Shown: positions 23,757-49,082, counted from the first letter of the stretch. The stretch: DNA of 50,774 nucleotides from an uncultured Candidatus Bathyarchaeia archaeon (GCA_964587735.1 CAZPMB010000003.1:1-50774); one strand, 5' to 3'. A program made the numbers and translations. The notes: generated by a model not told the origin, from the sequence alone.

Positions 23757-23795
23757 CAGAATCACGAATCGGAGACCATCGCATCTGGGTGAGCG

Positions 23796-28905: not shown

Positions 28906-28910
28906 AAACG

Positions 28911-30872: not shown

Positions 30873-31140
30873 GCAGAACGAGGAGGGCATCAGGTTCTGC
30901 AAGAAGTGCGGCGCGCCCCTCGACAGCCGTTTGGGCCGCCGGAGATACGGACACGAGAGGGACATGTGCTTCGGGGTGCCGATTGCGGGCTATACCTGGG
31001 GCCTGCTGTTCGGCCTGGTGATCATCCTCTGGGGCGCATCCCAGCTCTTCGGCCTCGACTTCAACTTCTGGGCCATCTTCGCCGTCGCCTTCGGCCTCAT
31101 CATACTGTGGGGCGCACTGCAGAGAACCAGCCGAACATAG
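30847..31140 (+). CDS. Zinc-ribbon domain membrane protein
   Basis: YCTECG....FCKKCG followed by two TM helices. Confidence 0.85.
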   Translation: MVYCTECGEQNEEGIRFCKKCGAPLDSRLGRRRYGHERDMCFGVPIAGYTWGLLFGLVIILWGASQLFGLDFNFWAIFAVAFGLIILWGALQRTSRT

Positions 31141-31159
31141 TTGGATCCAGGCAGGCCGC

Positions 31160-32788
31160 CTATCTCTTTTTGAGGACCCGCCCGGACAGGGCGCCGGTGT
31201 GTTCGCCGCGCCTCAGAGTCACGACGCCGTTCACCACGAGGTGCTCTATCCCCTCGGGGTAACGCATCGTCGCCTCAGGGGGCACGAAGTCCGACCTGTC
31301 GATGACGGTTTTGGGGTCGAAGACAGCGATGTCCGCCCACATCCCCGGCAAGACCAGCCCACGGTCGTTTAGCCCCAGGATCCTGGCGGGAAGGGAGGTC
31401 ATCTTCCTAACGGCCTCCTCCATCACTATCACCCCCTTCTCCCTGGCGTAGACGCCCAAAACCCTGGGGAAGGTGCCGTAGAACCTGGGGTGGGGGGCCG
31501 TAATGTGCTTGGCCAGCACCCCGTATGGGGCGTGGGCCTCTCCGTCTGAGCCGACAGCGACCCACGGCCGGGCCATTATCGCGTCCACGTTCTCGTCCGT
31601 CTGGTTGAAGTTGACGAAGCTGAAACCGCCCTTCAGCTCCTGGGATGCGAGCTTTGCGACGTGGGCCCTGAAGAGGTCGAAGACGGTGTCCTCCCCGCTC
31701 TTACCCCTCGACTCGGCCACCTCAGCTATGGTCTTACCTACGATCGAAGGGTCAAGGGGGTAAGTCGAGATGAGGGCAGCCTCCGAACCTCCCCTGTCGT
31801 CCATGGCCCTCGCAAGCCCTTCCTTGATCTTGGGCGACACCTCGGGGTCCTCGAGCCTCTCCGCCAGGGCCTCCAGGCCCCCCTCGTTGGCCCAGGCCGG
31901 GATCCATGCTCCCGGACCCGTTCCGCTGGCCCTGTAGGGATACTGGTCTGCGGTCACGTCGACGCCCCTCGCCCTCGCGTCCTCCACCATCCCGATGAGC
32001 CTCGGGCAGACGCCCCAGAGCCGCCTGGAGAGGACCTTGAAGTGGGAGATGTTCACCGGGAGCCCGGCCCCCTCGCCGATTCCTATGATCTCCGCCACCG
32101 CCCCGACGGGGTCGCCCCTATCCCCCTCGTCCCTGATGTGGCTCGCGTAGTAGCCGTCGTATCGGGCGACGACCTTCGCCAGCTCTATCACCTCCCCGGT
32201 CTCTGCGTAGCTCTGGGGGTCGTACCTTAGCCCCGCGGAGATGCCGAAGCATCCGGCCTCCATCGCCTTCGCGACCTCAGCCCTCATCGCCTTCAGCTCC
32301 CTCTCTGTCGGCGCCCTCATCTCCATCCCCATGACGTACTGGCGGACCGTTCCGAAGCCTACCTGGGGTGCGACGTTCACCGAGATGCCGCCCTCCTCGA
32401 GCTTATCGAGGTACTCCCCGACGGTGGACCAGTCGACTTCGACACCAGCCTCACCCAGGTAGGGGTTCTCCCGCTCCACCTCCTCCCTCATCTCGTCGTT
32501 GAGGGGCGCCGCTCCCCCTCCGCAGCTCGGGAAGACGACGGTCGATACCCCCATGTGGACCTTGCTCTCGGCCCTCCTGTTCACGAGCAGGGCGAAGTCG
32601 GAGTGGTCGTGGAGGTCGATGAAGCCGGGGCACACGATCTTTCCGGAGGCGTCCAACTCCTCCGTCGCCCCCCCGGAGACCCTCCCCACGGCCGCGATCC
32701 GCCCGTTCTCGACTGCCACGTCCGCCCTGAACCAGGGGTTGCCTGCCCCGGTGACCACCCTCCCGCCCTTTATCAGCAGATCGAACAT
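31160..32788 (-). CDS. N-acyl-D-amino-acid deacylase (D-aminoacylase family amidohydrolase)
   Basis: PGFIDLHDHSD, SHIRDEG, ISHFK, VGSDG, HPRFYGTFPRVLG, ADIAVFDP. ATG at 32788. Confidence 0.93.
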   Translation of the reverse strand: MFDLLIKGGRVVTGAGNPWFRADVAVENGRIAAVGRVSGGATEELDASGKIVCPGFIDLHDHSDFALLVNRRAESKVHMGVSTVVFPSCGGGAAPLNDEMREEVERENPYLGEAGVEVDWSTVGEYLDKLEEGGISVNVAPQVGFGTVRQYVMGMEMRAPTERELKAMRAEVAKAMEAGCFGISAGLRYDPQSYAETGEVIELAKVVARYDGYYASHIRDEGDRGDPVGAVAEIIGIGEGAGLPVNISHFKVLSRRLWGVCPRLIGMVEDARARGVDVTADQYPYRASGTGPGAWIPAWANEGGLEALAERLEDPEVSPKIKEGLARAMDDRGGSEAALISTYPLDPSIVGKTIAEVAESRGKSGEDTVFDLFRAHVAKLASQELKGGFSFVNFNQTDENVDAIMARPWVAVGSDGEAHAPYGVLAKHITAPHPRFYGTFPRVLGVYAREKGVIVMEEAVRKMTSLPARILGLNDRGLVLPGMWADIAVFDPKTVIDRSDFVPPEATMRYPEGIEHLVVNGVVTLRRGEHTGALSGRVLKKR

Positions 32789-33027
32789 ACGGATCAAGGA
32801 AGCCACCCAGGGACTGATATATCTTTTAGCCGAGCCCGGTGTTGAATGGTGGCTTATTTGTCATTTGCAACGAAAGGTCTGAAGCGCAGTAAAGCTATTA
32901 CTGGTCGTTCCCAGGATTTTCTCAGTTGTTCCAGTTCGATGTTCAAGGGCTTGGATGGGGATGACGCAGCTTTATCTACTGTGCCTGTTAAATATGGAAT
33001 GCGTCAGTGAATGTTGGTGAACGATGT

Positions 33028-34283: not shown

Positions 34284-34919
34284 TTACATCGGTATTATCT
34301 TCAGTACCTGAAGGAAGAACTGAGCCCTTCCCGCGAGCATCGACATCCTGAAGAGGACGGTGTTGGCGAAGTATACGCCCAGGCCGATCATGATAATCCA
34401 TCGGCCGATCCGGGTTGGGTAACTCAAGGCGCCGGTGTGCTCGTAGGTCAGCAGGAAGTAGGTTATGGCGCAGATGGTGCCAATGGCGACGTAAACGAAA
34501 GTGAACCAATCGATCGGCGCGTTGCCTGTTGGCGGCCTGATTGTTGAGATCACCTGGCTCAACAGGTTTGGTATTAGAACCCCCCTCATCCCTAGGCCGA
34601 ACCCTGCGCCCACGAGGATGGCGATGGGGTACCTGCTCACCCATCGATATTCGGAGATTAGGAGAGCGTACATGGCGAATCCTAGGATTAATGGTATAAC
34701 GTAAATGACTTCCCCTGCCATGAGCGGTCTTATGGCTATCCTGGTGACGTTCCCTATAGCCACCATCAACGATATTGCCATGGTTATCCCTATGTAGAGG
34801 TGCTCTGCGAACCTGTAGGCAGGAGTCTCCTTATAGAGGACGTAGCTGTAGACCATCAGTAACAGGAGCCATTGAAACCAGAGTCCAGATAATCCAAATA
34901 GATCAGTCGGATAAGCCAT
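34284..34919 (-). CDS. Cassette B subunit 4: multi-TM hypothetical protein
   Basis: FAEH, SRYPIAILVG.G.GL.MR and FANTVL.R motifs shared with 43378-44097. Confidence 0.85.
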   Translation of the reverse strand: MAYPTDLFGLSGLWFQWLLLLMVYSYVLYKETPAYRFAEHLYIGITMAISLMVAIGNVTRIAIRPLMAGEVIYVIPLILGFAMYALLISEYRWVSRYPIAILVGAGFGLGMRGVLIPNLLSQVISTIRPPTGNAPIDWFTFVYVAIGTICAITYFLLTYEHTGALSYPTRIGRWIIMIGLGVYFANTVLFRMSMLAGRAQFFLQVLKIIPM

Positions 34920-34920
34920 C

Positions 34921-35754
34921 TCATTTACCTCCTTTTCCTCTGGCAGAGAGCATGCCGATATTGGCCAATATCACGGCAGCGATAACTAAGAGATGGGAGA
35001 CATTTATCGAATCCATGGTGACTGTAGCAGATCCGGGCTCGCCTATCAACTTCTCCATCTCCGCGCCACCCCTGGAGCCCACGCTCATGCCGAAGAGGAC
35101 CCCAGCCCTATAATGGGGCATGTAGCTCGACCCCAGCATGGCGATACCTATCTCGCCTACAGGCGTGCCGTAATTGGTGTGCCACTGCCTTATGTAGTAG
35201 TCGCACCAGTCGCCTGTGTCGCCCGACAGAACAAGTCGGATGTCGCGAGCCGAATTCACGTTCTTCATCATCTCAATCTGATCGAGTGGTGTCCCATAGG
35301 CATCCGTTGGGAATACGGTTCTGATGTTAGCGCCCAATTGAGCAACCGCGGCCTCCAAGCCCGCGTAGAATCCGAGGAAGACGTAATCCTTACCATATTC
35401 CTTTTGGGCGAAGTCCGGGACGAGCTCTTGAAGTCTTGCCCATAAGATTTGGTAATCGACATAAGGACTTACAAAGATCAACTTCGCACCTTGCCTCAGA
35501 ATAATCTTCGTGCTGGCTGCCGTTGCGGGCATGCATTCGGGTATCCCGCCTACGCCGAAGGCTTCGTTGAGGAGGACGACGTCGCCTGGTTGTAAGGTTT
35601 TTAGCTCATTATAGAGACTTAGGGTGCTCGGCGTTACGGCGATGGGTAAACCTATGGGTCGGATAAAGGGGATCGCTAGGCCTATGAAGAGTATCCAGTA
35701 TAGGTATCTTCTGTCGATTTTCTGCAGCTTTACGAGGATCGACTCTCCGCTCAT
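34921..35754 (-). CDS. Cassette B subunit 3: TM-anchored alpha/beta domain protein
   Basis: N-terminal TM + RPIGLPI, soluble domain (YGKDYVFLGF, IRQWH), C-terminal TM. Paralog of 44102-44950. Confidence 0.85.
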   Translation of the reverse strand: MSGESILVKLQKIDRRYLYWILFIGLAIPFIRPIGLPIAVTPSTLSLYNELKTLQPGDVVLLNEAFGVGGIPECMPATAASTKIILRQGAKLIFVSPYVDYQILWARLQELVPDFAQKEYGKDYVFLGFYAGLEAAVAQLGANIRTVFPTDAYGTPLDQIEMMKNVNSARDIRLVLSGDTGDWCDYYIRQWHTNYGTPVGEIGIAMLGSSYMPHYRAGVLFGMSVGSRGGAEMEKLIGEPGSATVTMDSINVSHLLVIAAVILANIGMLSARGKGGK

Positions 35755-36407
35755 TTCCCTCCAGCCACCTCTCCATAGTAGCCCTTCTCCCTTCCAAGGA
35801 GAGCCCTTAGGCCGTAGGCGAGCAATCCGAAGGCACCAACCATCATAAACGTCCTCATAGCCGGAACTTGACCGTAGTCAAGGAACCATCTACCGACTAT
35901 AGGGATCTGGTTCCAGATCACCTCACCGATTGGTGCGTTAGTCAGCAGCACTATGCAGCCAGCCATAAGGAGTAATGCGGCATCTATGTTTCTGGCCCTG
36001 AATGCCCTGTAGGCAGCTGAGAAGATGTAGAAACCTGTCATTGCATAGAAAGTAGCATCGAGGCTTACGTATGGGTTCGAGAATATCCAGTCGTATAAGC
36101 TGTTGCTTTGTGGGTCACCTGTCGACGCATAGCCTACGAGACCAGTAATAAGAGTTAGCGCGAACAATCCAACGAGCATACCGCTGTATTGCCAATTGGT
36201 GCTCCTCCTCTGTATGACCTTACCATGTGACATCATCATCCTTATGGCGCCGAGTCCCATGGCTATGTTGTAGATGACCATGCCCCATGTCTGGACCTGC
36301 TCACCTATCCACGTGGATGTCTCGAAGAAGAAGAAGTCTATGAACATTATAGCGACGATTATAGCAGTTACAAGATATACGACCTGTCTTTGGAATATCG
36401 ACGACAT
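35751..36407 (-). CDS. Cassette B subunit 2: multi-TM hypothetical protein
   Basis: GFY..S..YRAFRARN, NAP, GRE.G shared with 44953-45633. 4-nt overlap with the next gene. Confidence 0.85.
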   Translation of the reverse strand: MSSIFQRQVVYLVTAIIVAIMFIDFFFFETSTWIGEQVQTWGMVIYNIAMGLGAIRMMMSHGKVIQRRSTNWQYSGMLVGLFALTLITGLVGYASTGDPQSNSLYDWIFSNPYVSLDATFYAMTGFYIFSAAYRAFRARNIDAALLLMAGCIVLLTNAPIGEVIWNQIPIVGRWFLDYGQVPAMRTFMMVGAFGLLAYGLRALLGREKGYYGEVAGGK

Positions 36408-36411
36408 CTTC

Positions 36412-37197
36412 TCACATCCTTAGTATGTCTATTAGAGAGGTGATCCTGCCAAGCCCGAGTAAAAAGCCAACGGCGATCAGCGCAAGGAATGCGAACTTGA
36501 TGATATCTTCGCCTTTGATGCTGCCCAACATGTGAGGGTCCTCGCTGATGGTTGCGCCCGCGGCGTACAGCTCCTCGCTGAGGAGCATGTAGTCGCATGT
36601 TGCAACCATGAAAGGCATCTGGTGGGTATTGGCGGTGCCCCCGATCTGGAAAGCCCCAATTGCGTTGCCGGCCTCGCCCATGATAACCGACTCGTAATAG
36701 AAGCCGCCGATCAGTATGTTCGAAGCCGGTCGCTGCCTCTGGAAGTAGCCGAGGGTCGCCGACAAGTACGGGGACTGCTCAGATTGGAAGTGGATCATGT
36801 CCAGATCAAACTCGTCCGGCTTCCCCTCGGCGAGGAAGGCCATTCTCATCGTTTCCTCGACCAGAGGAAGTGCGTCCTGAATAGGGACGAAGGCGTCCAA
36901 CCTGACACCCGATTTTATGCACTCCCTTAAGATGTATCCCATGATGCTTATCGATGCCAGCACCTGCGGTCCCTGAGTCGGATCGTTCAAGTTTCCAGCA
37001 ATGCCGGGAGTATAGTAGATGGGCTTACCCATCTCAGCAGCCCTTCCAACGGCCTCTGGTATGGCTGCCATAGCCGGTAGCGTCCTGACCTTTATCTTCA
37101 TTCCTCCCTTCCCCAGGTACATGAACAAGTAGAAGAGCGCGAAAGCGACAACCATGAGAACAAAAGCCATCAATCGTCCTGCAACTATTACTGCCAC
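36412..37197 (-). CDS. Cassette B subunit 1: DUF6754-like protein
   Basis: IPEAVGRAAEMGKP, CDYMLLSEELYAAGA. TM at both ends. Paralog of 45644-46429. Family name from recall. Confidence 0.82.
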   Translation of the reverse strand: MAVIVAGRLMAFVLMVVAFALFYLFMYLGKGGMKIKVRTLPAMAAIPEAVGRAAEMGKPIYYTPGIAGNLNDPTQGPQVLASISIMGYILRECIKSGVRLDAFVPIQDALPLVEETMRMAFLAEGKPDEFDLDMIHFQSEQSPYLSATLGYFQRQRPASNILIGGFYYESVIMGEAGNAIGAFQIGGTANTHQMPFMVATCDYMLLSEELYAAGATISEDPHMLGSIKGEDIIKFAFLALIAVGFLLGLGRITSLIDILRM

Positions 37198-37408
37198 TGT
37201 TTTTCCCTTCCTTTTTCCCGTCTATCACGCGGGCAAGCTCAATCCAAGCAGCAGCTCGAATCGTGGCTTCTTAGCCCGTCGATGAATAGACTAATTTCTC
37301 CTTTTTATTCTCTTCATTATATAACATTTCTCTGGAAAACACGCCAAAATCATTATAAAATGGCATTTTGCGGAAAGAATTAATCAATCATCTTTAATGT
37401 ATATGAGC

Positions 37409-37822
37409 TTATTCCCGTTCCTCTGAAGCGGGTCCCACTGCTTCCTTCTTACCGAACTTTGACTTGAGGGCGAGGTAAGCGCCGGCGACGCCACCGACCG
37501 CGAAGATGACCAGAACGACGACGGCGAAGCCGATTACGTTCTCGATGTTTGATGACAGCACGAAGAAGAGATTGAGCGCGCTGGCCGCGGCCGCAACCTT
37601 CAGGCCCACCGACAGGTGTTTGGACGACGCCCTCCTGCAGACGAGATAGGACGAGATTATTGCCCCCAGGAGGAAAGAGATGTACTCTGCGTCGGCAAGG
37701 ATCGCCGCCGGTGCCCAGGAGAGATAAGGCAGGGCCTGGTACCATATCCAGACGAATCCATTTGCGAGCATCGCCCCCGCCGCATAGTCGAACAGCGTGG
37801 GAACCCCGTCTTCCCTGCCCAA
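37409..37822 (-). CDS. 4-TM membrane protein, paralog 3
   Basis: DY.AGA.LAN..VW.W, VCRRASS.HL.VGLKVA, GG..GAYL. Confidence 0.8.
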   Translation of the reverse strand: MGREDGVPTLFDYAAGAMLANGFVWIWYQALPYLSWAPAAILADAEYISFLLGAIISSYLVCRRASSKHLSVGLKVAAAASALNLFFVLSSNIENVIGFAVVVLVIFAVGGVAGAYLALKSKFGKKEAVGPASEERE

Positions 37823-37994
37823 AGGATTTAGACCGGTCTCTATCTCATCGACTCTGTATAAGAACCTTACACGATTTCGCCTGCGCCCTCGTCAGGCAGA
37901 TGGCGAAGTCACTCAGCTTTTACAAGCCTTCACAGGCGGCTAATAGGCATTAACCTATTTCAACTACCATTGTTTTAATTTCCCTAACAGGCGT

Positions 37995-38042
37995 ATTTTG
38001 ATTGATCATCTATCAAAATTCCGCCGTTCTAATCCTTAGAAC
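37995..38042. promoter_or_regulatory. Two palindromes in a divergent promoter region
   Basis: ATTTTGATTGAT-C-ATCTATCAAAAT (37995-38019, one mismatch). GTTCTAA-TCC-TTAGAAC (38026-38042). Confidence 0.45.
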
Positions 38043-38119
38043 GATTCCATGGCTCAGTTGGACGCTTGTTCTAAAGCATGGTATAATTACCCGGGACCCA
38101 CACCCTTACTCAGACAAAA

Positions 38120-38926
38120 ATGAACTCGAAACAGCAGTACATCTCTGTGTTCGCGATCTGTGCGACCATCATCATAGCAACGGCGATGATAACATACAAA
38201 CCTCTGATACCACTTGAAGAAGAAGGAGACCTGTTCAAGTTCCCCGCAGGCATACCGCCCTCATTGAGCACGACGTCATCCGCGACAAGCGTCGGCGAAG
38301 ACCAGGTAAAGGCGATACACGTCTCGGGCTCGGGTAGCGCATCGGCGAAAGCCAACCAGGCGACGGTAACCCTTGGCGTCACCACCGAGGATCCCTCGGC
38401 ATCAGAGGCCGTCGAGGACAACGCGGCGCTGATGAGTTCGGTGATCCAGGCCATCAAGGCTCTCGGCATCTCCGAGGAGGACATCAAAACCGTCCAGTAC
38501 AGCGTGTACCCGAACTACAACTGGGAGCTTAGGCAGACAGTCGGCTACAGCGTCACCAACATGGTCGAGGTGAAGATTGTAAACCTCGACATTGTGGGCG
38601 ACGTCATAGACGCCGCGGCTGAGGCCGGTGCGAACAACATCCAGGGCATAGCATTCGGCCTGTCCGACGAGGTCGCTGAAGGGCTGAAGACCGAGGCGTA
38701 CGTGAAGGCCCTCACGGATGCGAGGGGCAAGGCGGACCTCATCGCCGAAACTCTGGGGCTTGAGATCACAGGCGTCCTATCGGTCAGCGAGAGCGTATAC
38801 TACCCCTACACGCCATACACGTCCTACAAGGGATACGCGGAATCGGTCTCAGCCGCGCCCACGCCGATCATCGAGGGCACCCTGAGCGTCTCTGTCAGCG
38901 TCCAAGTGTCCTTCACCTTCCAGTAG
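38120..38926 (+). CDS. SIMPL/DUF541 (BP26-like) domain protein with N-terminal anchor
   Basis: IHVSGSGSASAKAN.ATV.LGV, IKTVQYSVYP.Y, GYSVTNMVEV, GANNIQGI.F, A..DARGKA..IA. Confidence 0.9.
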   Translation: MNSKQQYISVFAICATIIIATAMITYKPLIPLEEEGDLFKFPAGIPPSLSTTSSATSVGEDQVKAIHVSGSGSASAKANQATVTLGVTTEDPSASEAVEDNAALMSSVIQAIKALGISEEDIKTVQYSVYPNYNWELRQTVGYSVTNMVEVKIVNLDIVGDVIDAAAEAGANNIQGIAFGLSDEVAEGLKTEAYVKALTDARGKADLIAETLGLEITGVLSVSESVYYPYTPYTSYKGYAESVSAAPTPIIEGTLSVSVSVQVSFTFQ

Positions 38927-39066
38927 ATCGCGACCACAACAACTCTCTTTTTTCTATCTGACTCGAAATCTAGGCAGAACTGGGTTAACCAGTGTAACAC
39001 TCGCTTCATGGGTATCAAAAAGGAGAATTCGCACGACGATGAAAAATAGGGGATTTGAGGAGAGAG

Positions 39067-40224
39067 TTACTCCTCAATTATCTCCACATTGGCCCTAGGC
39101 ACCGTAACCACGGTGCCGTCCTCGAGCTCCACGTCGAGGACCCTGACGAAGGACTCCGACTCGAGCTGCTGGAGCTCAACCGGAAGGCTGGCCACTTTGC
39201 CTATTGCCCCGAAGTAGGGCTTCCTGATGATGCGGACCGGCGTGCCGGCGACCATGCCCCCGGCAAGTTCCTCCTCGGAGCCCTTCGGTGAGGCCTCCTG
39301 GTGGGGGATGATTATCTCGGGCCTGAGGACGCCCGCCCTGATCTGCGTTGCACCGTTGACCGAGGCGTAGTACCCGTCGAAGCTCTTGAGGAGGCTGAAC
39401 GTCGTCTCGGACATCTTCATCTTGCCGAAGCCCTCCGTGATGATGATGGTGATCCCCACCTCCTCCTCTCCAGTAATTGCGACCCCTATCTCAGTGCCTA
39501 TGAAGGAGGTCAGGTCGCTGTGGCGTATGCCCCCGGCTACGATGCACGAGACGCCGACCTCTACGGCCCTCCTCAGGGCCTCCATTGTGACCATCGATCC
39601 GCCCACGAGCACGGCTCCTTTGTCGTCGGGTTTGATTTGGTCCACCGTTAGCTCGTCGTCGGGGGACGCGACGGCCACCCTAATCTTGCCGTAGCTCTCG
39701 CCGCCGATGCCGAAGATGCCCTGGACGAAAGCGGCGTTTGTCCCGACGATGGCGCCTTCCCTGGGCATCACTTCGACGACCTTGCCGGGGATGTACGAGT
39801 CTATCTCCACGGGCACGGGCTTGCCCCTGACGATGAGCTGCCCCGTTATGTCCGATATGGCCTCGATGGTTCCGGCCACGGGGGATGTCACCTGCTTCTT
39901 TATGAGGCCGAAGAGGGCCGTGAAGTAGGCTATCATCTCGCCCTCATCGACGGGATCCCCCACCTTCTTCTTCATGTAGCGGTAAAGGTCATCCGGCTCG
40001 ACGCCGAGGAGCATGGCTGCCTTCACGATCTCCGGGTCTCCGCTTATCTCGGTCCTGGCCGTGACGGTTTCGTGCTCGACGACTTCGCCGACCTTTACAA
40101 GCACCTCTCCGAGGATCGGTAGCCTACGCGTTTTCAAGACCGACATGACACGCTTAACCTTCAGGCCCGGGGTGTATGCGTGTGCCTCGGTTGAGGATTT
40201 CTTGTCCCCTTTCTTCTTGCTCAT
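39067..40224 (-). CDS. GlmL-associated hypothetical protein with barrel-sandwich-hybrid-like repeats
   Basis: AYTPG; GEVLVKVGEVV; KKVGDPVDEGEMIA...SPVAGTI; QGIFGIGGE; GGSMVTMEAL...IVAGG; C-terminal VRIIRKPYFGAIGKV..LP...VPRANVE. ATG 40224 starts 2 nt after the glmL-like stop. Confidence 0.85.
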   Translation of the reverse strand: MSKKKGDKKSSTEAHAYTPGLKVKRVMSVLKTRRLPILGEVLVKVGEVVEHETVTARTEISGDPEIVKAAMLLGVEPDDLYRYMKKKVGDPVDEGEMIAYFTALFGLIKKQVTSPVAGTIEAISDITGQLIVRGKPVPVEIDSYIPGKVVEVMPREGAIVGTNAAFVQGIFGIGGESYGKIRVAVASPDDELTVDQIKPDDKGAVLVGGSMVTMEALRRAVEVGVSCIVAGGIRHSDLTSFIGTEIGVAITGEEEVGITIIITEGFGKMKMSETTFSLLKSFDGYYASVNGATQIRAGVLRPEIIIPHQEASPKGSEEELAGGMVAGTPVRIIRKPYFGAIGKVASLPVELQQLESESFVRVLDVELEDGTVVTVPRANVEIIEE

Positions 40225-40225
40225 C

Positions 40226-42061
40226 TCATACAAGCTCCTTCAGTTTGTCTATTGGGTAAAGGTCCAGGCTCTTGAACCAGTTAAACAACAGCTCCTTCCG
40301 CTGGCTCAGTTCCTCAGGCATTCTAAGTGGGCGACCCCTTCCGTCCAGCAGTACTCCCGCCACTCCGCCCATGATTTTTGCCTTGGTGGCTTTTCCGGGC
40401 CCCTCACCCACGTCGAAGTTCTTGGCAGGCGTGATCAGTGCCTCGGCGTCAACCCTCTCGGCCAGTGGTATGCGCTTGATCTCGCCGAAGTTGATCTTCT
40501 CCTCAATCGTCTTCCCGTCCGGCATATCGAGCTTTACTGTCATCGCGGGCTCTCCTGGGTTCGTTGTCCCAGCGGCCGCTATGCATGTACCCATCCTGAC
40601 TAGGCAGTCCTTGTCGAATATGTTCCACGCCGCATCCCTGTAGACCGTCGAGAGGACTCCGAGGTGGGGCATCATGAAGACGCTGTCCTGGAACATCTTG
40701 GTCACCCCCTCGGGCTGCCAGGCATCGGTCAGGATGAACATCGGCTGGACCCGCCTCGGCGCGTGGCTGAGGAGCCCCCCAGTCCCGGCGATGATGTCTA
40801 TGGCCATCATCTTTATGTAGGTTTCCTCGATGGCCTGGTCGAACATGTCGGCGATAGTCCTCTGCACCTGGATCCCCTTCAGCCTCGTCGCGATGGTCTT
40901 ATGGTGCTCCAACCCCAGCCTGAGGGCCTCCCGCGCCACGGAGTGCTCTACTATCAGGTCCTCGAGGGTCTGGGGGATGGTCGTCGGCCTGATCATCTTG
41001 TTCATCAGCCTGCTAGAAACCTCCTCCTCGTCGACGTCGAAGGGTATCCACCTCATTATGTTCCTGATACCCGCCTCCTTCATCACGTTGGTCACGCTGT
41101 AGCTCATCCCGAGGTTCGCGCTGACGCTCCTGACGAACCGGCCATCCACAACCGAGTAGACGTTCGTCGTAGCGCCGCCCAGGCCCACTCCCATGACGTT
41201 CTCCTTGTAGGTGCTGGCGATCAGCTGCATCGCCATTCCCTCCCCCGCCGGAGTGGGCATGATGGGCGTGTCGGTCCATTTCATCAGCTTCGTGTAGCCG
41301 GGCGCGTGGCTCATGACGTGCTCCATGAAGAGCTCGTGGACCGCCCGGCGGGCCGGCTCCGTGTTCTCGATCTCAAGCACCGGTCGTAGGTTATCGACTA
41401 TGTCCAGGGCGAACTCCCCGCCTATCAGTTTCTCGACCTGGGGCCTCAGTGACTTGTTCCCGGCGTAGACGATGGGGAGCTTGTACGCAGCCCCGAGCCG
41501 TGGCCTTGGCTCCGCGGCCTTGAGTAGCTCCACGAGCTCGATTACGTGCTCCGTCGCGCCCCCATCGGTCCCCCCCGCCAGGAGGATCATATCCGGCCTG
41601 AGGCTCCGGATCCTCTTTATCTTCTGGTAGGTCTGGCGCCCGTCGTCGCGCGCGATGACGTCCATGACGATGGCGCCCGCCCCGAGGGCGGCCCTGTTCG
41701 CGCTCTCGGCGGTCATAGCCTTGATGAGGCCCGCCACCATCATCTGGAGTCCACCTCCCGCGCTGCTCGTCGTGCAGTACAGGTCAACACCCATCTTCCC
41801 GTCGTAGGGGACGACGATCCCGCCACCGTCCGGGGAGAGGATCTTGTGACCCGTCAGCTCCTCGACCTCCCTGACGGCGTTCTGGACCCCCATGGTCACG
41901 TCCTCGTAGGGCGCCTCAACGGTAGTCGGTGATTCTCCAGCCACGAGGAAGCGCCACTCGCCTTCCCTCTTGTGGAAGAAACGGGCCTTCGTCGTCGTGC
42001 TCCCGACGTCGGTCGCCAGTATGTACTGCATCTCCTCAGTTGGCTTCCTGAGAGCGGCCAA
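40226..42061 (-). CDS. GlmL/MutL (glutamate mutase L)-family ASKHA-fold protein, C-terminally extended
   Basis: Phosphate-1 ATDVGSTTTKA; CTTSSAGGGLQM; PDMILLAGGTDGG; MPTP; phosphate-2 GVGLGGATTNV; RSVSANLGMSYS; adenosine-like AGTGGLLSHAP. Confidence 0.88.
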   Translation of the reverse strand: MAALRKPTEEMQYILATDVGSTTTKARFFHKREGEWRFLVAGESPTTVEAPYEDVTMGVQNAVREVEELTGHKILSPDGGGIVVPYDGKMGVDLYCTTSSAGGGLQMMVAGLIKAMTAESANRAALGAGAIVMDVIARDDGRQTYQKIKRIRSLRPDMILLAGGTDGGATEHVIELVELLKAAEPRPRLGAAYKLPIVYAGNKSLRPQVEKLIGGEFALDIVDNLRPVLEIENTEPARRAVHELFMEHVMSHAPGYTKLMKWTDTPIMPTPAGEGMAMQLIASTYKENVMGVGLGGATTNVYSVVDGRFVRSVSANLGMSYSVTNVMKEAGIRNIMRWIPFDVDEEEVSSRLMNKMIRPTTIPQTLEDLIVEHSVAREALRLGLEHHKTIATRLKGIQVQRTIADMFDQAIEETYIKMMAIDIIAGTGGLLSHAPRRVQPMFILTDAWQPEGVTKMFQDSVFMMPHLGVLSTVYRDAAWNIFDKDCLVRMGTCIAAAGTTNPGEPAMTVKLDMPDGKTIEEKINFGEIKRIPLAERVDAEALITPAKNFDVGEGPGKATKAKIMGGVAGVLLDGRGRPLRMPEELSQRKELLFNWFKSLDLYPIDKLKELV

Positions 42062-42169
42062 TTCGATTCCCTAAAGGTTTTACATAGATCAGTCTTAAAG
42101 TTTTCCTAAAGCTTCCGACGAGTTTTCTCTGAAACTTTCAGGGGTCTCGGTTATGGGCTAAACCTCTAA

Positions 42170-42568
42170 TCAAAAGGGGAGGAACCGCCTCCAACCCCTC
42201 TTCGCTGGCGCTACCTCGCCCCCCTCTGGCCCTGCCCCCTTTGTGGGCTGCTCTGTCTTCTTCTCTTTCTCCCTCTTCTTGTCTTCCTCTGTCATCTTTT
42301 CCAGCATTGATATGAGCTTCTCGACGTTGTCGTGCTTCTCGAATACCTGAAGCAACTTCTCGCCCCCCATCTCGATCTTCTCCCCTAGGGCCGGAAGGAA
42401 CGGGGCGAGGAAGAAGCGGCCCATCTGCGTCCCTATGAAGCTCAGGGGCTTGACGGTCTCTAGGAACAGGATGCCGACGACGTCCATCCCCGTCTTATGG
42501 ATCGTCTCGGCCACCTTCCTGATGTACGCCTCCTCCTCTTCGGGGGTGAGATTTATCTCCCTGAACAA
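42170..42568 (-). CDS. Small hypothetical protein upstream of the glmL-like gene
   Basis: ILFLETVKPLSFIGTQMGRFFLAPF amphipathic core, charged tail, coding-like composition. Confidence 0.78.
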   Translation of the reverse strand: MFREINLTPEEEEAYIRKVAETIHKTGMDVVGILFLETVKPLSFIGTQMGRFFLAPFLPALGEKIEMGGEKLLQVFEKHDNVEKLISMLEKMTEEDKKREKEKKTEQPTKGAGPEGGEVAPAKRGWRRFLPF

Positions 42569-42604
42569 ACTGGGCCCCTTGCCTACACCGAAAGCTGAGT
42601 AACC

Positions 42605-43054
42605 TTAAGGGCCCCCGGATTTAAAATCTTCCTCGCCCTCATTCGGTTTTCCCTTCGCAGAGGTTCTCCCCTTGAGCATGGCCCTTATCGTCAGATAGGC
42701 CCCGCAAAATCCCCCCGCCGGGAAGCACACGAGCAGGATGATGACCAGGCCCAAGGAGAACTCCTCGAGGATGGGGAGAACGATGAAGGGCGAGACGACC
42801 AAGGCCAGGGCGGCGACCTTGAGTCCAACAACCAGGTGATCCGACGATGCCCTCCTGCACACCTGATAGGAAGCCAAAGTCCCGCTTAGGAAGCACACGA
42901 TGCTCGTCGCCAGAGAGAGGAGGCCGGGAGGCAAACCGGAAAGGACGTCGCTGAAATAGCCCATCGCCTGCAGCCAAACCCACACGAGGCAATTCGCCAG
43001 TACCGCCCCGGCCATGTAGTCCGTCTTGCTGGGCTTCCTGTCCTTATCCGCCAA
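42605..43054 (-). CDS. 4-TM membrane protein, paralog 2
   Basis: DYMAGAVLAN..VW.W, VCRRASSDHLVVGLKVA, GGFCGAYL. Confidence 0.8.
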   Translation of the reverse strand: MADKDRKPSKTDYMAGAVLANCLVWVWLQAMGYFSDVLSGLPPGLLSLATSIVCFLSGTLASYQVCRRASSDHLVVGLKVAALALVVSPFIVLPILEEFSLGLVIILLVCFPAGGFCGAYLTIRAMLKGRTSAKGKPNEGEEDFKSGGP

Positions 43055-43377
43055 GGCTCAATCAACCTCCGAAACTTATAATCTAGGGAATACGACTTTT
43101 ACATCTCTTAATCACTCGTCCTTATTTATCTCATGCGGATAGTGTCGAGAATCGTCTCTGAGCGGTTTTCATGGCAGAGAAATCAAGTAGATCTCGAGCC
43201 GAAAGCCTTGCCCACGTCTTGAAGCGTCCCAAACTAAACTCGATAAACATTAGCTCTTATGCCCCATTTGTTGCACTGATCGGTAATGGCCCTCTCCTCA
43301 TGTCTTTGCCTCGGCCATTTGGCAAACTGTCTGGTTTTTGAGGATGTAAAAAAGGGGATTAGAATTTATTTCGGTAT

Positions 43378-44097
43378 TTATCCTGGTTGTATTGGTTTAG
43401 GCCAGGGTCGTTTCTCGGCCGGAATCATAGCGTATACTAGCAGTATCAGGACGACCGGGAATGTGATCATTGCCCCTGGGAGGGGCAGCCATTGGCTCAT
43501 GATGAAGTCGAGTCTTCCGAAGATCATGTTGAACCTGGAGAGGATCGTGTTGGCGAAGGAGTAGCCGAATGCGGCCATCATCCCGTACCTGGCGAATCTT
43601 GATATTATCCCGAGGTTTCCGCCGTGCATGCCCGGGAAAGTGAATATGAAGAAGTACACGACCGTCAGCACCAGTACTATGAAGAGTATATTGCTGAAGC
43701 CGGTCCAGGCGTCGACCCCAAGCACCTTGATCTTGGCCGTTGAGCTGATTTGAGCAATGAACTCGGCCGTCACGGCGGCTCTCATCGAGAGGCCGATGCC
43801 GATGCCGACCATTATCGCTATGGGGTACCTGCTCATCCAGAAGTATTTGGAATATCTGGTGTAGAGGAGGAATCCGAGCAGGAAAACAACGGCGTAGACG
43901 AAAGCCCCCCTTGCGAAGGGCGTCCAGCCACATCGTATCACGTTGTCGACGCCCATAACGATCTCGTGACCTGCGGCGGCTCCGACGAACGTGTGTTCCG
44001 CGAACTTGAAAAAGGGATTGTCTCTGAAGGCTATACTGTATACCCAGATTGTGAACAGGGCCGCGGCCCATATCTGGAAGACCGTGTTAAAGTCCAT
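43378..44097 (-). CDS. Cassette A subunit 4: multi-TM hypothetical protein
   Basis: FAEH, SRYPIAIMVG, FANTIL.R. Start at ATG 44097 (MDFNTVFQIW), just after the preceding stop at 44102. Confidence 0.85.
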   Translation of the reverse strand: MDFNTVFQIWAAALFTIWVYSIAFRDNPFFKFAEHTFVGAAAGHEIVMGVDNVIRCGWTPFARGAFVYAVVFLLGFLLYTRYSKYFWMSRYPIAIMVGIGIGLSMRAAVTAEFIAQISSTAKIKVLGVDAWTGFSNILFIVLVLTVVYFFIFTFPGMHGGNLGIISRFARYGMMAAFGYSFANTILSRFNMIFGRLDFIMSQWLPLPGAMITFPVVLILLVYAMIPAEKRPWPKPIQPG

Positions 44098-44101
44098 CCA
44101 C

Positions 44102-44950
44102 TCATCCCTTCCTCGAGGCCTTGCTCGCATAGTAGGCGATGTTACCGAGCACGACGTAGGCGAGCACCAGGATGTGCGTGGTCGTTATGACGTCGGCCGA
44201 TTTTATTCCCCGTGCCGGCTTCCCGACGAGTGATTCCATCTGGCCCGAAGTGGCCCCCGCCAACAACGCGACGATCTGCCCCGCGTTTCGATACGGAAGC
44301 ATCGTGGGCACCATCATGGCTAAAGTGGAGCAGAGGTAGGGCACCTGATAGGGCGTGTACCACTGCCTCACCCACCCCTCCGACTGGTCGCCGCCCGTCG
44401 TGTAAACGATCAGCGTATCGAAGCTTGAGGCGTCCGTGATCCCCTCCATAATGGGGAACTGATCGAGCGAGACCCCCTTGTAGTCGGTGGACGTCGTCGC
44501 CCTCAGGTCCTTTCCAACGGCCGCCATCGCCGTCTCTGTACCGGTTATGAAGCCGATGTGAATGTAATCCACACCGTACTGTGCACCATACTGCCCAGGG
44601 TTAACCTCCGCCATGGCCTTCTCCCAGAGAAGCGGGCCCTCTGTCGACGTCGACATCGCTATCGCCTTGAGCCCGCCCCTCCTGAACATGTGATGGTACA
44701 CAGCCACAGCCATCGGCCCGAGCTCGGGCTCCCCGCCGCCCGAGTATCCGAAGTCTATCATGATCACCGATCCATCTGGAAGGTTCTCTATCCAGTTGTA
44801 CCACCTCTTCGACTCGTCCGATATTGGTATGGGGAAGCCTATCGGCCTCACCATGGGTATGATGAACGCTATCAGCAGTAGGCCGTACAGTATCTCCCTT
44901 GGGACGTTCTCGAGCCTGCTCCAGATCCCCTTCTGCTCACTGCCGCCCAT
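44102..44950 (-). CDS. Cassette A subunit 3: TM-anchored alpha/beta domain protein
   Basis: RPIGFPI, IDFGYS, YGVDYIHIGF, VRQWY, C-terminal TM. Confidence 0.85.
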   Translation of the reverse strand: MGGSEQKGIWSRLENVPREILYGLLLIAFIIPMVRPIGFPIPISDESKRWYNWIENLPDGSVIMIDFGYSGGGEPELGPMAVAVYHHMFRRGGLKAIAMSTSTEGPLLWEKAMAEVNPGQYGAQYGVDYIHIGFITGTETAMAAVGKDLRATTSTDYKGVSLDQFPIMEGITDASSFDTLIVYTTGGDQSEGWVRQWYTPYQVPYLCSTLAMMVPTMLPYRNAGQIVALLAGATSGQMESLVGKPARGIKSADVITTTHILVLAYVVLGNIAYYASKASRKG

Positions 44951-44952
44951 CT

Positions 44953-45633
44953 TCAGCCCCCCTTCTCGGCCTCGGTCAACCTGCCGAGGAACCCTGTCTC
45001 CCTACCGATCATCGTGCGTATGCCAAGGGCGATTGCCCCCAGGGCCGCGCCGATCATGATCCCCCTCTGCGCCGAGGTCGTCGGTATTGCGCTGATCCAT
45101 GCCTCCATGTTTATGACGATCGGCGCAGCAACGGCTATCGCGGGGGCGTTTCTCATGATGGCTATCGCCCCGACTATTAGAAGAAGCATCGATTCGAGAT
45201 TTCTCGCCCTCAAGGCACGATATATGCCAGATGTCATATAGAATCCCAAGGATGAGTAGACGGTTGCGCTGAGCGCGAAGTACGAGGAATTGTAAAGCCA
45301 CGAGTAGGTACTTGAAGTTGCCCCGTATCTGATGCCGGTAACGGCGAAGATAATGATAATGAGGAGAAGCCAGATGCTGAACGGCCATTGTCCCTTGGTG
45401 CGCCGGGAGATGTGCCGTGTGTGAAGGTAGGAGAGGTTTACGGCGCCGAATCCGAGAGCGAACGCAGCTAGTACGATCCCCCAGTTCTGTATGTCCGTGA
45501 CGAGAGAGCTCGTCCAGCTCTTTTTCGTCACCGCGTCGATCGGCGGTAGCTGAAGGAAATAGTCGGCCATTATGATCAGCGCCGTGACGAAGACGATGAG
45601 AATCGGGATCTGCCTTCTGACCATTAGAGACAT
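44953..45633 (-). CDS. Cassette A subunit 2: multi-TM hypothetical protein
   Basis: GFYMTSGIYRALRARN, NAP, IGRETG. Confidence 0.85.
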   Translation of the reverse strand: MSLMVRRQIPILIVFVTALIIMADYFLQLPPIDAVTKKSWTSSLVTDIQNWGIVLAAFALGFGAVNLSYLHTRHISRRTKGQWPFSIWLLLIIIIFAVTGIRYGATSSTYSWLYNSSYFALSATVYSSLGFYMTSGIYRALRARNLESMLLLIVGAIAIMRNAPAIAVAAPIVINMEAWISAIPTTSAQRGIMIGAALGAIALGIRTMIGRETGFLGRLTEAEKGG

Positions 45634-45643
45634 ATTCTTTCAC

Positions 45644-46429
45644 CTACATCTTCAACAGGTCGATGAGTGCGTTACTGCCGAATGCGTAGATGACGACCCC
45701 GACGAACATCAGTATCAGCGCGACGATTTTGCCCAGATCCTGCCCCCTGATGCTGCCCGCCTGCAGCGGGTCCTTTGACAGATAGGCGCCCGCGGCGTAG
45801 ATCTCCTCCGCTATGAGGAGGTAGTCGCAAACGACGGCAAAGAATGGGATCTGGTACCCCCTCGCCGTCCCGGCCAGCTGTATCGCCCCGATCCTGAAGA
45901 AGGTCTCCGAGAACAGCATGGACTCCGCGTAGAATGGACCGATCATTATGTTCGCCGCCGGGCGCTCCCTCTCGGCGATTCCCTGCACGGCTGATGCGTA
46001 CGCGAATTGTTCGCCCGAAAGGTACCTGATCTGGTCCTCCGCGTTGAACTCCTCAATCTTGCCGGCCCTGATATAAGCATCCCTCATCAGCTCCGTCGCG
46101 ATCGGCATCACCTGGGCCGCATAGACAGAGTAGATGATCTTTACACCGTACTTGGCGGCCATCTCAGAGGCGTATCCCAGCACGGCCAAGCCGGCAACGA
46201 GCTGCGGCGCGACGGATTCAGTCAGGCTGCCCAGGCCCGTTGTGAAGTGCACGGGCCTGTTCATCTCCGTTGCCCTCCCCATCATCTCGGGCAACGCGTC
46301 GAGGCCTGGGAGCCTGCGGAAGGTTGGTAGCTTCTTCTTGGCCAGCTCCATACCGCCGATTATGAATATCCATAGAACTGCCAGCATTCCGAGCGCGAAG
46401 ATTCTTCCTGTGACTAACACAGAATTCAC
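45644..46429 (-). CDS. Cassette A subunit 1: DUF6754-like protein
   Basis: RRLPGLDALPEMMGRATEMNRP, CDYLLIAEEIYAAGA, terminal TMs. Confidence 0.82.
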   Translation of the reverse strand: MNSVLVTGRIFALGMLAVLWIFIIGGMELAKKKLPTFRRLPGLDALPEMMGRATEMNRPVHFTTGLGSLTESVAPQLVAGLAVLGYASEMAAKYGVKIIYSVYAAQVMPIATELMRDAYIRAGKIEEFNAEDQIRYLSGEQFAYASAVQGIAERERPAANIMIGPFYAESMLFSETFFRIGAIQLAGTARGYQIPFFAVVCDYLLIAEEIYAAGAYLSKDPLQAGSIRGQDLGKIVALILMFVGVVIYAFGSNALIDLLKM

Positions 46430-46598: not shown

Positions 46599-47003
46599 TT
46601 ACTCCTTAACTAGATTCTTCCTAATCTCAGATCCATGAAACGTTTTAGCTAGGAAACCGCCAATCACTCCTCCCACAGTAAAGCTTGCGAAATACACAAT
46701 CACCCCCCAGAGAGCCTCATGATATTCAAAGACAATCAATCTGAATACTGTGTTCAACAGAAATGCCCCGAACCCGGCTCTCAACCCAACATGCACCTGC
46801 TTCGACGGCATCCTGCGCGTTAAGCCAAAGGCGCCAAGCAACGCCGCCTCAATATACACAAAGACTGACAGTATCGTATAGTTCAAAGCCGTTTGACCCG
46901 GGAAGTACAGCGAGGCGATGTATTCCCACAGCCACGAGATCCCACATGCGATCAGCGCCGCGCCAAAGTAGCTCTCAAAACCCGGGAAGGTATCTTCATT
47001 CAT
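46599..47003 (-). CDS. 4-TM membrane protein, paralog 1 (more divergent)
   Basis: SYFGAALIA..SW.W, TRRMPSKQVHVGLRA, GGVIGGFL. Confidence 0.72.
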   Translation of the reverse strand: MNEDTFPGFESYFGAALIACGISWLWEYIASLYFPGQTALNYTILSVFVYIEAALLGAFGLTRRMPSKQVHVGLRAGFGAFLLNTVFRLIVFEYHEALWGVIVYFASFTVGGVIGGFLAKTFHGSEIRKNLVKE

Positions 47004-47274: not shown

Positions 47275-48273
47275 ATGGCGTGTTATTTACTTGAAATGTC
47301 AACCCCGGATATCCAGAAGGTCGTCGAGGAACTGAAGAAGCAGCAGGAGATGCTCATGCACGCGTTCGACTTAGTCGAGAAGTCGGTCGACGACATCCTC
47401 TGGTTTCACCGTGTAGGGGACATTGCATCGGTCGACAAGTTCAGGATGACCGGGCCGCCCCCGAGGGTCATCCCGAATCCCACGGCCCAGGGAGCCAGAA
47501 ACCCGGTGGTCTTCTGGTCCTACACGTTCGTCCCCAAGGACATCGAATCGGGCGAGAAGCACCCGCTTCTCGTCTTCCCCCACGGGGGCGTCCACGCGAA
47601 CATGGGCTCCTCCGCCTTCCACATAGTCAGGGAGCTCATCCAGCAGGGCTACCTGATCATCGCCCCTGAGTATCGAGGGAGCACGGGGTACGGCGAGGGG
47701 TTCTACAAGCTCATCGACTACGGCGGGCTCGAGGTTGAGGACACCTACGCGGCCAGGAACTGGATGGTGGAGAACTGCGATCTCGTGGACCCGAAGCGCG
47801 TCGGCATCATCGGGTGGAGCCACGGGGGCCTCCACGTGCTGATGAACATCTTCGAGCACCCGGAGGCATACAAGGCGGCCTTCGCGGGCGTCCCCGTGAG
47901 CGACCTCGTCGCCAGGATGGGGTACAAGACCCAGCAGTACAGGGACATCTATTCGGCACCCTATCATATCGGGAAGACCGCGTACGAGGACGTTGGCGAG
48001 TACAGACGCCGATCACCTGCGTGGAACGTCGAGAAGCTCAGAACGCCCCTGCTCATCCACACGAACACGATCGACGAGGACGTCAACGTGCTCGAGGTCG
48101 AGCACCTCATCAAATCCCTGAAGGCGGCCGGAAAGGAGTTCGAGTACAGGGTCTATGAGAAAATACCCGGTGGACACGTCTTCGACAGGATTGACACAAA
48201 GTTCGCGAAGGAAGTCCGAGCCGAGATATATAGGTTCCTGGCAAAATACCTTCACCCCCCAAACCCAATGTAA
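47275..48273 (+). CDS. S9-family (prolyl oligopeptidase-like) serine peptidase
   Basis: HGG, EYRGSTGYG, GWSHGG (nucleophile Ser), DEDV, GGHVF. Alternative ATG 47296. Confidence 0.92.
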   Translation: MACYLLEMSTPDIQKVVEELKKQQEMLMHAFDLVEKSVDDILWFHRVGDIASVDKFRMTGPPPRVIPNPTAQGARNPVVFWSYTFVPKDIESGEKHPLLVFPHGGVHANMGSSAFHIVRELIQQGYLIIAPEYRGSTGYGEGFYKLIDYGGLEVEDTYAARNWMVENCDLVDPKRVGIIGWSHGGLHVLMNIFEHPEAYKAAFAGVPVSDLVARMGYKTQQYRDIYSAPYHIGKTAYEDVGEYRRRSPAWNVEKLRTPLLIHTNTIDEDVNVLEVEHLIKSLKAAGKEFEYRVYEKIPGGHVFDRIDTKFAKEVRAEIYRFLAKYLHPPNPM

Positions 48274-48323
48274 ATTCCCCTGAACGCCCTAAATCTTCAG
48301 CTTTTCACTCTTTTTTCTTCAAC

Positions 48324-49040
48324 TCAGGTTAAGATCTGTCTGATCTTCCTGAAGACGTCCATCCACATCTCCCATGTTAGCCTGCCTGTCTGTGTATTCT
48401 GCCTACTAGGATGGTATGAAGTGAAAAGGGAGGGTAAATCCTTGAACGTGTAGAGCCCTCCATGCCTGAAACGCGGTCTCTGAACTGTTTTTGGCAGTAC
48501 GTACCTGACGTAGGCGTCGAAGGCTATCCTGCCGAGGGTGAGCACAGCTTCGACTTCTGTCAGAATCCGCGCCTCCTCTCCCAGATACTCGGAGCAGTTC
48601 ATAATTTCCTCGGCTAGGGGCTTGTTCCCTGGCGGAGTGCACCTGACGGCAGCAGTGATGTAGGCGGACCTTAACCTGAGCCCATCGCCCGCGCTCACGC
48701 TCTCGGGTTGGTTCGCGAAACCGGATTCGTGCAGGGCCCTGGTCAGCCAGTCCCCGGAGCTGTCCCCAGTGAACATCCTCCCAGTCCTGTTACCGCCATG
48801 CGCCGCAGGCGCTAGGCCGATCACCAAGAGCCTCGCCTCCGGATCGCCGAAGCCGGGAAGGGGACGTCCCCAGTAGCTCCACTCACTGTACCTTCGAGCT
48901 CTCTCCCTCGAGACCTTCGAAACGTAATCTATTAGCCTTGGGCACCTACGACAAGAGATTACCCTGTTCCTAAGAGCCTCAAGAGCCCTTTTTCTTCCCA
49001 CAGCCAACTCCGTCAAGGCCCACGAAGGTATCTGCGGCAC
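48324..49040 (-). CDS. Uracil-DNA glycosylase, family 5 (UdgB type)
   Basis: CRRCPRL, GLAPAAHGGNRTGRMFTGD, RCTPPGNKP, YHPSRQNTQTG. Confidence 0.93.
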   Translation of the reverse strand: MPQIPSWALTELAVGRKRALEALRNRVISCRRCPRLIDYVSKVSRERARRYSEWSYWGRPLPGFGDPEARLLVIGLAPAAHGGNRTGRMFTGDSSGDWLTRALHESGFANQPESVSAGDGLRLRSAYITAAVRCTPPGNKPLAEEIMNCSEYLGEEARILTEVEAVLTLGRIAFDAYVRYVLPKTVQRPRFRHGGLYTFKDLPSLFTSYHPSRQNTQTGRLTWEMWMDVFRKIRQILT

Positions 49041-49082
49041 TATTAAATTAACTGGGTTCGCGCCCGGAAAAGGCGCTAATCG

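Follow-up and report, generated by a model that had tools for sequence, protein, structure and literature searches.

The stretch of DNA analysed here (50,774 nt; hereafter the window) comes from a Bathyarchaeon of freshwater or other sediment and carries two cassettes of membrane-protein genes, A (43378-46429) and B (34284-37197), each consisting of four tightly packed genes on the minus strand (Table 1). The subunits are called s1 to s4 in gene order, and the contigs on which cassette loci were compared are labelled L001 and so on. Downstream of A lie, in this order, the genes of a small protein with four transmembrane (TM) helices, a protein of about 130 residues (p132), a 611-aa GlmL/MutL-family ATPase (MutL) and a 388-aa barrel-sandwich protein (BSH). 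The first-pass annotation of 34284-46429 dealt with the cassettes; the five further genes in that span, including the conserved cytoplasmic partners, were absent from it.

Pairwise BLASTP of A against B gave 40 % identity for s1 (E 3e-60), 31 % for s2 (E 3e-35), 32 % for s3 (E 1e-49), and 31 % for s4 (E 1e-32). This resemblance is far above chance, and judged by their sequences, the cassettes are paralogues in identical gene order, as had been proposed. All ten motifs quoted earlier as shared by A and B were recovered, once per copy and at homologous positions. In line with the accompanying proposal that these residues point to the functional core, most of them are kept across more than ten phyla: GRAxE and CDY..EE..AA in s1, F..SA.YRAFRAR and G.ER in s2, YG.DY..G in s3, and the E of FAEH, W.SR, and F..T...R in s4. 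RQW and RPIG are not family-wide. The E of FAEH, put forward with its H as a candidate for ion coupling, appears from the sequence to be sited at the membrane boundary rather than in the middle of the membrane. The arginine-rich YRAxRARN motif is predicted to lie in the cytoplasmic loop between TM4 and TM5 of s2, so that the docking of a cytoplasmic partner suggested for it is plausible. Two gene starts probably differ from the longest reading: that of A s1 is placed at the second GTG (46420), because homologues are 258 aa long, and that of A s4 at M12 (44097), so that the protein has the 239 aa of its orthologues.

Table 1 Features of the window
Feature	Coordinates	Strand	Remarks
A s1	45644-46429	-	DUF6754; Pfam PF20539, 249.4 bits, E 4e-74, model 10-253 of 257
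A s2	44953-45633	-	Six TM helices; cytoplasmic F..SA.YRAFRAR and C-terminal G.ER.YLGG motifs
A s3	44102-44950	-	N-terminal TM helix, alpha/beta domain predicted outside, C-terminal TM helix
A s4	43378-44130	-	Polytopic membrane protein; no Pfam or PDB match
B s1	36412-37197	-	DUF6754; Pfam 217.6 bits, model 8-251 of 257
B s2	35751-36407	-	Paralogue of A s2
B s3	34921-35754	-	Start overlaps end of s2 by 4 nt
B s4	34284-34919	-	Paralogue of A s4
p132	42170-42568	-	132 aa; a single hydrophobic hairpin, charged tail; conserved first member of the cytoplasmic trio
MutL	40226-42061	-	GlmL/MutL-family ASKHA (actin-fold) ATPase, 611 aa; PF13941, 394.9 bits, E 6e-118
BSH	39067-40233	-	388 aa; lipoyl-like barrel-sandwich-hybrid N-terminus, KOW-like C-terminus; overlaps MutL by 8 nt
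Small four-TM protein	46599-47003	-	Upstream of A; weak DUF3792/TIGR04086 similarity; G+C at third codon positions 0.585
Small four-TM protein, second paralogue	42605-43054	-	Between A and the cytoplasmic genes
Small four-TM protein, third paralogue	37409-37822	-	Upstream of B
SIMPL/DUF541 gene	38120-38926	+	Between the BSH gene and B
Amidohydro_3 hydrolase	31160-32806	-	D-aminoacylase-like; Pfam match; context only, not a proven part of the system
551-aa ORF	24631-26286	-	No Pfam match
225-aa ORF	22802-23479	+	No Pfam match
tRNA-Pro (CGG)	4978-5056	-	Sole RNA gene detected in the window

Family searches were made with Pfam, NCBIfam, and PADLOC on the window proteins and with Pfam also on up to 35 diverse homologues per subunit. 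Both s1 proteins are clear members of DUF6754 (gathering threshold 27 bits), a catalogued domain of unknown function whose entry is silent on the three partner subunits, the operon, and the ATPase partners. No Pfam, NCBIfam, PADLOC, or PDB match was obtained for s2, s3, or s4, with more than 30 homologues of each taken into the Pfam and PDB searches, and beyond DUF6754 and MutL these family searches gave no membership. Neither profile searches of solved structures (s2, s3, s4, MutL, and BSH) nor single-sequence searches (s1, s3, MutL, and BSH) returned a significant relative. PADLOC reported no defence system, with one chance-level match to AbiEi (E 0.009).

Confident AlphaFold2 (AF2) models were obtained for s1 and s3 (predicted local distance difference test scores of 90.9 and 84.7). 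In both, a parallel, Rossmann-like alpha/beta domain of about 190-200 residues lies between one N-terminal and one C-terminal TM helix. Bacterial s1 proteins have a signal peptide followed by an N-terminal fn3 or BamB-like propeller domain, and one carries a PKD domain at its C-terminus; both termini of s1 are therefore outside and the alpha/beta domain is in the cytoplasm. The flanks of the domain, with 6.5 K+R against 1.7 D+E, agree with this placement. The tails of s3 are K/R-rich at both ends, and its domain should therefore face outward. For s2, six TM helices with both ends inside are predicted. About 190 residues are strongly conserved in the cytoplasmic domain of s1, the invariant polar ones being R52, E55, Q76, E113, R154, N160, E169, C201, D202, E208, and E209.

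A search for fusions among 149 s1 representatives yielded only extracytoplasmic additions (fn3, propeller, PKD, or coiled coil) and none to s2, s3, s4, MutL, or BSH. Examples with such additions are P0454, P0388, P0389, and P0500, and those in L053, L060, and L068; in bacteria they comprise fn3 domains with a 'PNDxGG...W' motif and BamB/PQQ-like propellers of about 500 aa, and archaeal s1 proteins have none. An apparent homology between s2 and s4, which would have meant pseudo-symmetry, was rejected: hhalign gave a probability of 84.7 % on rough alignments of open reading frames (ORFs) and 3 % on clean ones, and the signal was an artefact of ORFs that were over-extended or overlapping. Between s1 and s3, hhalign gave no signal.

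The model of PF13941 is matched by MutL over its entire length (1-450 of 450) and above the gathering threshold, and the phosphate-binding motifs DVGSTTTK and GLGGATTN are intact. BSH gave weak matches to Biotin_lipoyl and RnfC_N (for the latter E 0.0034 and 17.8 bits, against a cut-off of 25.6), and p132 was without a family match. Between archaea and bacteria, MutL proteins are 49-79 % and BSH proteins 42-70 % identical, and BSH always adjoins MutL in the surveyed loci. The three small four-TM proteins of the window are paralogues of 17-25 % identity with weak DUF3792/TIGR04086 matches, one encoded before each cassette and one before the ATPase trio. The place of the latter is occupied likewise in L002, L003, L006, L007, and L086; members of the family are found with cassettes at further archaeal loci and are missing from the bacterial loci.

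A scan of species-representative genomes gave 80 loci, and 86 sources were surveyed with hidden Markov models built here. The loci are from Bathyarchaeia, Methanomethylicia, Bacillota, Zixibacteria, Ignavibacteria, Cloacimonadota, Nitrospira, Eisenbacteria, Armatimonadota, and others, and the s1 family counts 2,375 representatives at 50 % clustering (E <= 1e-3). Of the 86 sources, all contained s1 and s2, 83 contained s3, and 82 contained s4. Every complete cassette runs s1-s2-s3-s4, with gene junctions that are tight or overlapping, an arrangement that suggests translational coupling. In 39 of the 86 loci (about 45 %), MutL and BSH lie within 10 kb, joined by p132 in 34, always next to MutL. 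These trio-linked loci come from Nitrospira, Eisenbacteria, Zixibacteria, Ignavibacteria, Bacillota, and Bathyarchaeia. In bacteria, the genes are usually arranged as p132-MutL-BSH-s1-s2-s3-s4, and the stop codon of BSH is often 0-6 nt from the start of s1.

Tandem arrays of cassettes are common. Sets of two or three with a single MutL-BSH pair recur in other phyla (L017, L021, L044, L045, and L051); triple-cassette arrays with no pair inside the surveyed stretch are those of L046, L053, L064, and L070. A further cassette may stand at a second locus of one metagenome-assembled genome (MAG), as in L009/L013 and L061/L065. The reverse of the layout with many cassettes to one ATPase is seen in Bacillota, Symbiobacterium included (L018, L023, L024, and L035): a single cassette precedes two MutL-BSH pairs in succession, and the first BSH contains an insertion of about 60 residues (L024:15003-16361). 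In L001, an additional A-type DUF6754 gene (7963-8754) stands alone, with no s2-s4, some 1.2 kb upstream of a full cassette.

The divergence of A and B had been taken to mean that the duplication is ancient rather than recent, and this was borne out: each has orthologues of its own, of 60-96 % identity, in other Bathyarchaeia. A-type s1 orthologues are 68-96 % identical (the closest relatives 82-96 %) and B-type ones 60-86 %. The nearest neighbours are the same for all four subunits, and each cassette thus evolves as a unit. The layout of A, small proteins, MutL, BSH, and B is repeated in L003 and L086, and in L087, L088, and L089 B comes after a MutL-BSH pair, either immediately or within some 4 kb. 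SIMPL, Amidohydro_3, and M14 peptidase genes belong to the wider neighbourhood shared with these relatives. A neighbour-joining tree of the concatenated subunits, made on simple distances, gave bootstrap values of 100 for the A clade and 100 for the B clade and 70 for an archaeal clade of A+B; the stem of B is long (0.48). Judging from these comparisons, the A/B split is an old duplication in the archaeal lineage, of which both copies were kept in conserved synteny.

The first-pass annotation had also found B to look more AT-rich and had suggested that it may be a horizontally acquired specificity variant. B is indeed the more AT-rich cassette: the overall GC content is 0.569 for A, 0.522 for B, and 0.586 for the whole window, and the G+C content at third codon positions (GC3) is 0.71-0.80 in A and 0.59-0.69 in B against a background of 0.792 +/- 0.080 (40 ORFs of the window). 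Of two hand counts given in support, 30/60 and 45/60 are both right, but the stretch with the latter, 41641-41700, belongs to the MutL-like ATPase gene and not to cassette A. All four adjacent genes of B lie low in an otherwise uniform window, at z <= -1.26 (range -1.3 to -2.5): s1 0.69, s2 0.589 (z -2.5), s3 0.629 (z -2.0), and s4 0.684. A transfer of B into this genome would also fit the long stem of its clade, the similar distances that separate B from A and from Bacillota homologues, and the signs that the locus was rearranged. A DUF483 gene is directly downstream of the B-type s4 in all seven other loci of Bathyarchaeia (L003, L004, L005, and L086-L089); it is missing from the window, where DUF2085 and zinc-ribbon genes follow B on the other strand. 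The SIMPL gene, too, stands elsewhere than in L086-L089, where such genes occur a few kb downstream of B, and the window locus therefore appears rearranged. A DUF483 gene is also present in L014, a triple-cassette locus of Bacillota.

Against transfer, five or more further genomes of Bathyarchaeia (L003 and L086-L089; 60-77 % s1 identity) have a B-type cassette in the corresponding position downstream of MutL-BSH. Together with the archaeal A+B clade, this marks B as an old resident rather than a recent import. In L003, the GC3 of both cassettes equals that of the neighbouring genes, so that the deficit of B is absent there. In L002 (A-type) and L005, the cassette genes lie below their neighbours in GC3, as B does in the window; the effect is therefore partly a property of these genes. 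Horizontal acquisition is thus very unlikely. The deficit may stem from low expression, or B may have been replaced by the orthologue of a lower-GC Bathyarchaeon.

Several known systems resemble parts of the module. The accessory proteins GlmL/MutL of the B12-dependent glutamate mutase and Or-4 (of ornithine degradation) share with the MutL described here the PF13941 family, the ASKHA fold, and the nucleotide-binding motifs. The window protein, however, scores below the NCBIfam cut-offs for GlmL (214.8 vs 475), Or-4 (218.7 vs 600), and TIGR01319 (146.4 vs 204), as does its Nitrospira homologue. It differs from GlmL and Or-4 further by a C-terminal extension of about 125 aa and by being paired with BSH and membrane cassettes instead of mutase subunits; no mutase or B12-binding family was found in the scanned window genes or among those called in L001-L005 and L086-L089. 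By analogy only, the module recalls binding-protein-dependent ATP-binding cassette (ABC) importers and group II energy-coupling factor (ECF) systems: it has two polytopic subunits, a tethered alpha/beta domain predicted to lie outside, and an ATPase module in the cytoplasm. Its gene layout, with a single ATPase module beside several alternative membrane modules, recalls that of shared-module ECF systems. Unlike these systems, it contains neither an ABC ATPase nor any ABC or ECF membrane family, its candidate motor has an actin fold, and s2 and s4 are not detectably homologous to each other. ABC_tran (PF00005) had no match in the module proteins, and TMD0_ABC appeared below threshold in 3 of 35 s2 proteins (23.9 bits vs 27). 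A literature search, which was not exhaustive, gave no mention of DUF6754, PF20539, or PF13941 and nothing useful on GlmL-like ATPases. We place the system outside every characterised kind; its function is deduced, and further literature may exist.

A first clue to that function comes from bacterial cassettes. The window and about 95 loci were scanned with Rfam for the lysine riboswitch (RF00168, cut-off 30 bits), and two bacterial cassettes proved to have a full-length copy that precedes s1 by 170-200 nt in the same orientation: those of L026, a Bacillota MAG (9620-9804, 75.7 bits), and of L096, a metagenome contig (804-989, 85.3 bits). Their s1 proteins are only 48 % identical. In L096, a promoter-like site, the aptamer, a terminator-like hairpin with a T-run (1017-1041), and s1 follow each other. 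Lysine riboswitches control genes for the biosynthesis and transport of lysine and, in a few species, catabolic genes (PMC5584792). The transporters listed under their control are LysP/GabP, LysW/NhaC, YvsH, and LysXY, and the DUF6754 cassette type is not among them (PMC5584792). The two bacterial cassettes have the same riboswitch arrangement as those transporters, one with a terminator-type platform. They differ in showing no sequence relationship and in having four subunits against a single permease or an ABC system, and the archaeal copies of the window have no riboswitch. The scan detected none in the window or in any archaeal locus, and the riboswitch evidence bears on the function of the family and not on the regulation of A and B. 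L107 carries a T-box on the other strand, which does not control its cassette.

Most simply, a four-protein membrane complex under a lysine riboswitch is a lysine-related transporter. The neighbouring genes point in a similar direction. In L026, an Amidohydro_3 gene (D-aminoacylase-like) precedes the cassette, and a gene for an MlrC-like metallopeptidase follows it directly. Amidohydro_3 homologues are near the cassettes in the window, L001, L086, L087, L022, L026, L056, and L009, the last four being bacterial (three Bacillota and L009), and MlrC, M14, M20, S9, creatininase, and class-III aminotransferase genes are further recurrent neighbours. The two lysine riboswitches and the recurrent amidohydrolases and peptidases together suggest the uptake of amino acids or peptides.

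As an account of the whole, an importer complex with a shared ATPase trio and an old in-lineage duplication is the best explanation, and we consider it somewhat probable. Subunits s1-s4 would form one membrane complex importing amino acids or small peptide or acyl-amino-acid derivatives, in which the substrate would be presented on the outside by s3 and would pass along a pathway formed by s2 and s4, and in which the cytoplasmic domain of s1 and the conserved s2 loops on the cytoplasmic side would provide the coupling to the ATPase trio. MutL, BSH, and p132 would be a shared module powering or regulating one to three alternative cassettes, and A and B would be specificity variants using the one trio encoded between them. 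The parts of this explanation are not equally firm. The anatomy and the evolutionary history of the module are held with good confidence. That the cassettes transport amino acids or small peptide derivatives falls a little short of probable, and energisation by the ASKHA ATPase is doubtful. More doubtful still is the widest form of the idea, that cassettes, MutL, BSH, and p132 are a hitherto unrecognised class of primary active transporters driven by an actin-fold rather than an ABC, P-type, or rotary ATPase, with swappable four-subunit modules such as A and B setting the specificity for amino acids or peptide derivatives.

A number of observations weigh against the importer explanation. No subunit resembles a known transporter, and neither a transporter family nor a solved structure gave a match to s2 or s4. 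Compared to the PDB by Foldseek, the models of s1 and s3 found only generic Rossmann/flavodoxin-type folds (best E 3e-3 and 5e-3; TM-score <=0.35 relative to the query). The fn3, PKD, and propeller domains on bacterial s1 proteins are unusual for small-molecule importers. By a core-motif search, only 2 of 169 loci have the lysine riboswitch, neither of them archaeal, and none was detected within 1.2 kb upstream in L090, the s1 of which shares 77 % identity with the L026 protein. No immediate neighbour of the module is conserved across all phyla, Memo-like genes being confined to Nitrospira. In 47 of the 86 loci, including L026 and all those of Cloacimonadota, no MutL-BSH pair lies within 10 kb, and ATPase coupling is therefore not obligatory in cis. 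As to the history, the key node of the simple-distance tree reaches only 70 %, and the low GC3 of B in the window is real.

The loci without a nearby pair, among them the riboswitch-linked one, would be expected if the cassettes were self-sufficient, ion-coupled secondary transporters and the trio had a separate metabolic or regulatory function, acting on the imported compound instead of supplying energy. The four loci with one cassette beside two MutL-BSH pairs agree with this as well, as do the conserved acidic residue (the E of FAEH) and the arginines in the membrane subunits. Such a division of labour is nevertheless quite unlikely: BSH and s1 are adjacent, often with overlapping stop and start, across distant phyla; MutL and BSH keep 42-79 % identity between archaea and bacteria while the neighbours outside the cassettes vary; and the roughly 190 conserved cytoplasmic residues of s1 have no obvious role in a simple carrier. 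Those same residues, many of them polar and invariant (including Cys-Asp-Tyr and Glu-Glu) and as such typical of catalytic sites or tight interfaces, would suit a system that is not a transporter but a membrane-anchored enzyme or envelope machine. Its ATPase would act through the cytoplasmic domain of s1 on a cell-surface target contacted by s3 and by the additional domains of bacterial s1. Protein- or glycan-binding extracellular domains are fused to s1 at either end, and other ASKHA ATPases are known to have bitopic membrane partners, as in PilM-PilN and FtsA. We regard such an enzyme or envelope machine as decidedly unlikely, since the family searches revealed no glycosyltransferase, peptidoglycan, or secretion family in any subunit, and two independent lysine riboswitches amid amidohydrolase and peptidase genes fit the uptake of small nitrogen compounds better.

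An ion-translocating redox complex of the Rnf/Nqr type with a docking cytoplasmic module has been effectively refuted. The likeness is superficial, lying in several polytopic subunits of about 200 aa, the membrane-anchored soluble domains, and the sub-threshold RnfC_N match of BSH; no Rnf-Nqr, FMN_bind, Fer4, or Complex1_51K domain occurs in the window subunits or in up to 35 homologues of each, and the partner ATPase has an actin fold and is not a redox protein.

Outside the module, the regions 17623-32806 and 47275-50459 abound in hydrolases of peptides and amides and in carriers (M48, M42, M20, and S9 peptidases, the Amidohydro_3 hydrolase, and two MFS transporters) and also encode pyruvate kinase, a thiamine pyrophosphate (TPP) enzyme, GH127, and a UDG-family protein. 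Low GC3 is also found in the window for ORFs 16224-16712 (minus strand, z -3.2) and 784-1212 (plus strand, z -2.5) and for the small four-TM gene upstream of A (z -2.6). The GC-poor 1-kb bins (about 0.50) are 6001-7000, 16001-17000, and 22001-23000.

If the importer explanation is true, the cassettes would represent a membrane-transport architecture of a new type, or failing that a membrane machine not seen before, in thousands of lineages. The large non-mutase branch of the GlmL/MutL ATPases, of which, to our knowledge, no member has a solved structure or a demonstrated function, would also gain its first cellular role. Through the bacterial copies under riboswitch control, the hypothesis can be tested directly in ordinary laboratory hosts. 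Bathyarchaeia are major degraders of detrital protein in sediments, and the cassettes would identify uptake systems of these archaea amid their peptidase and amidohydrolase genes.

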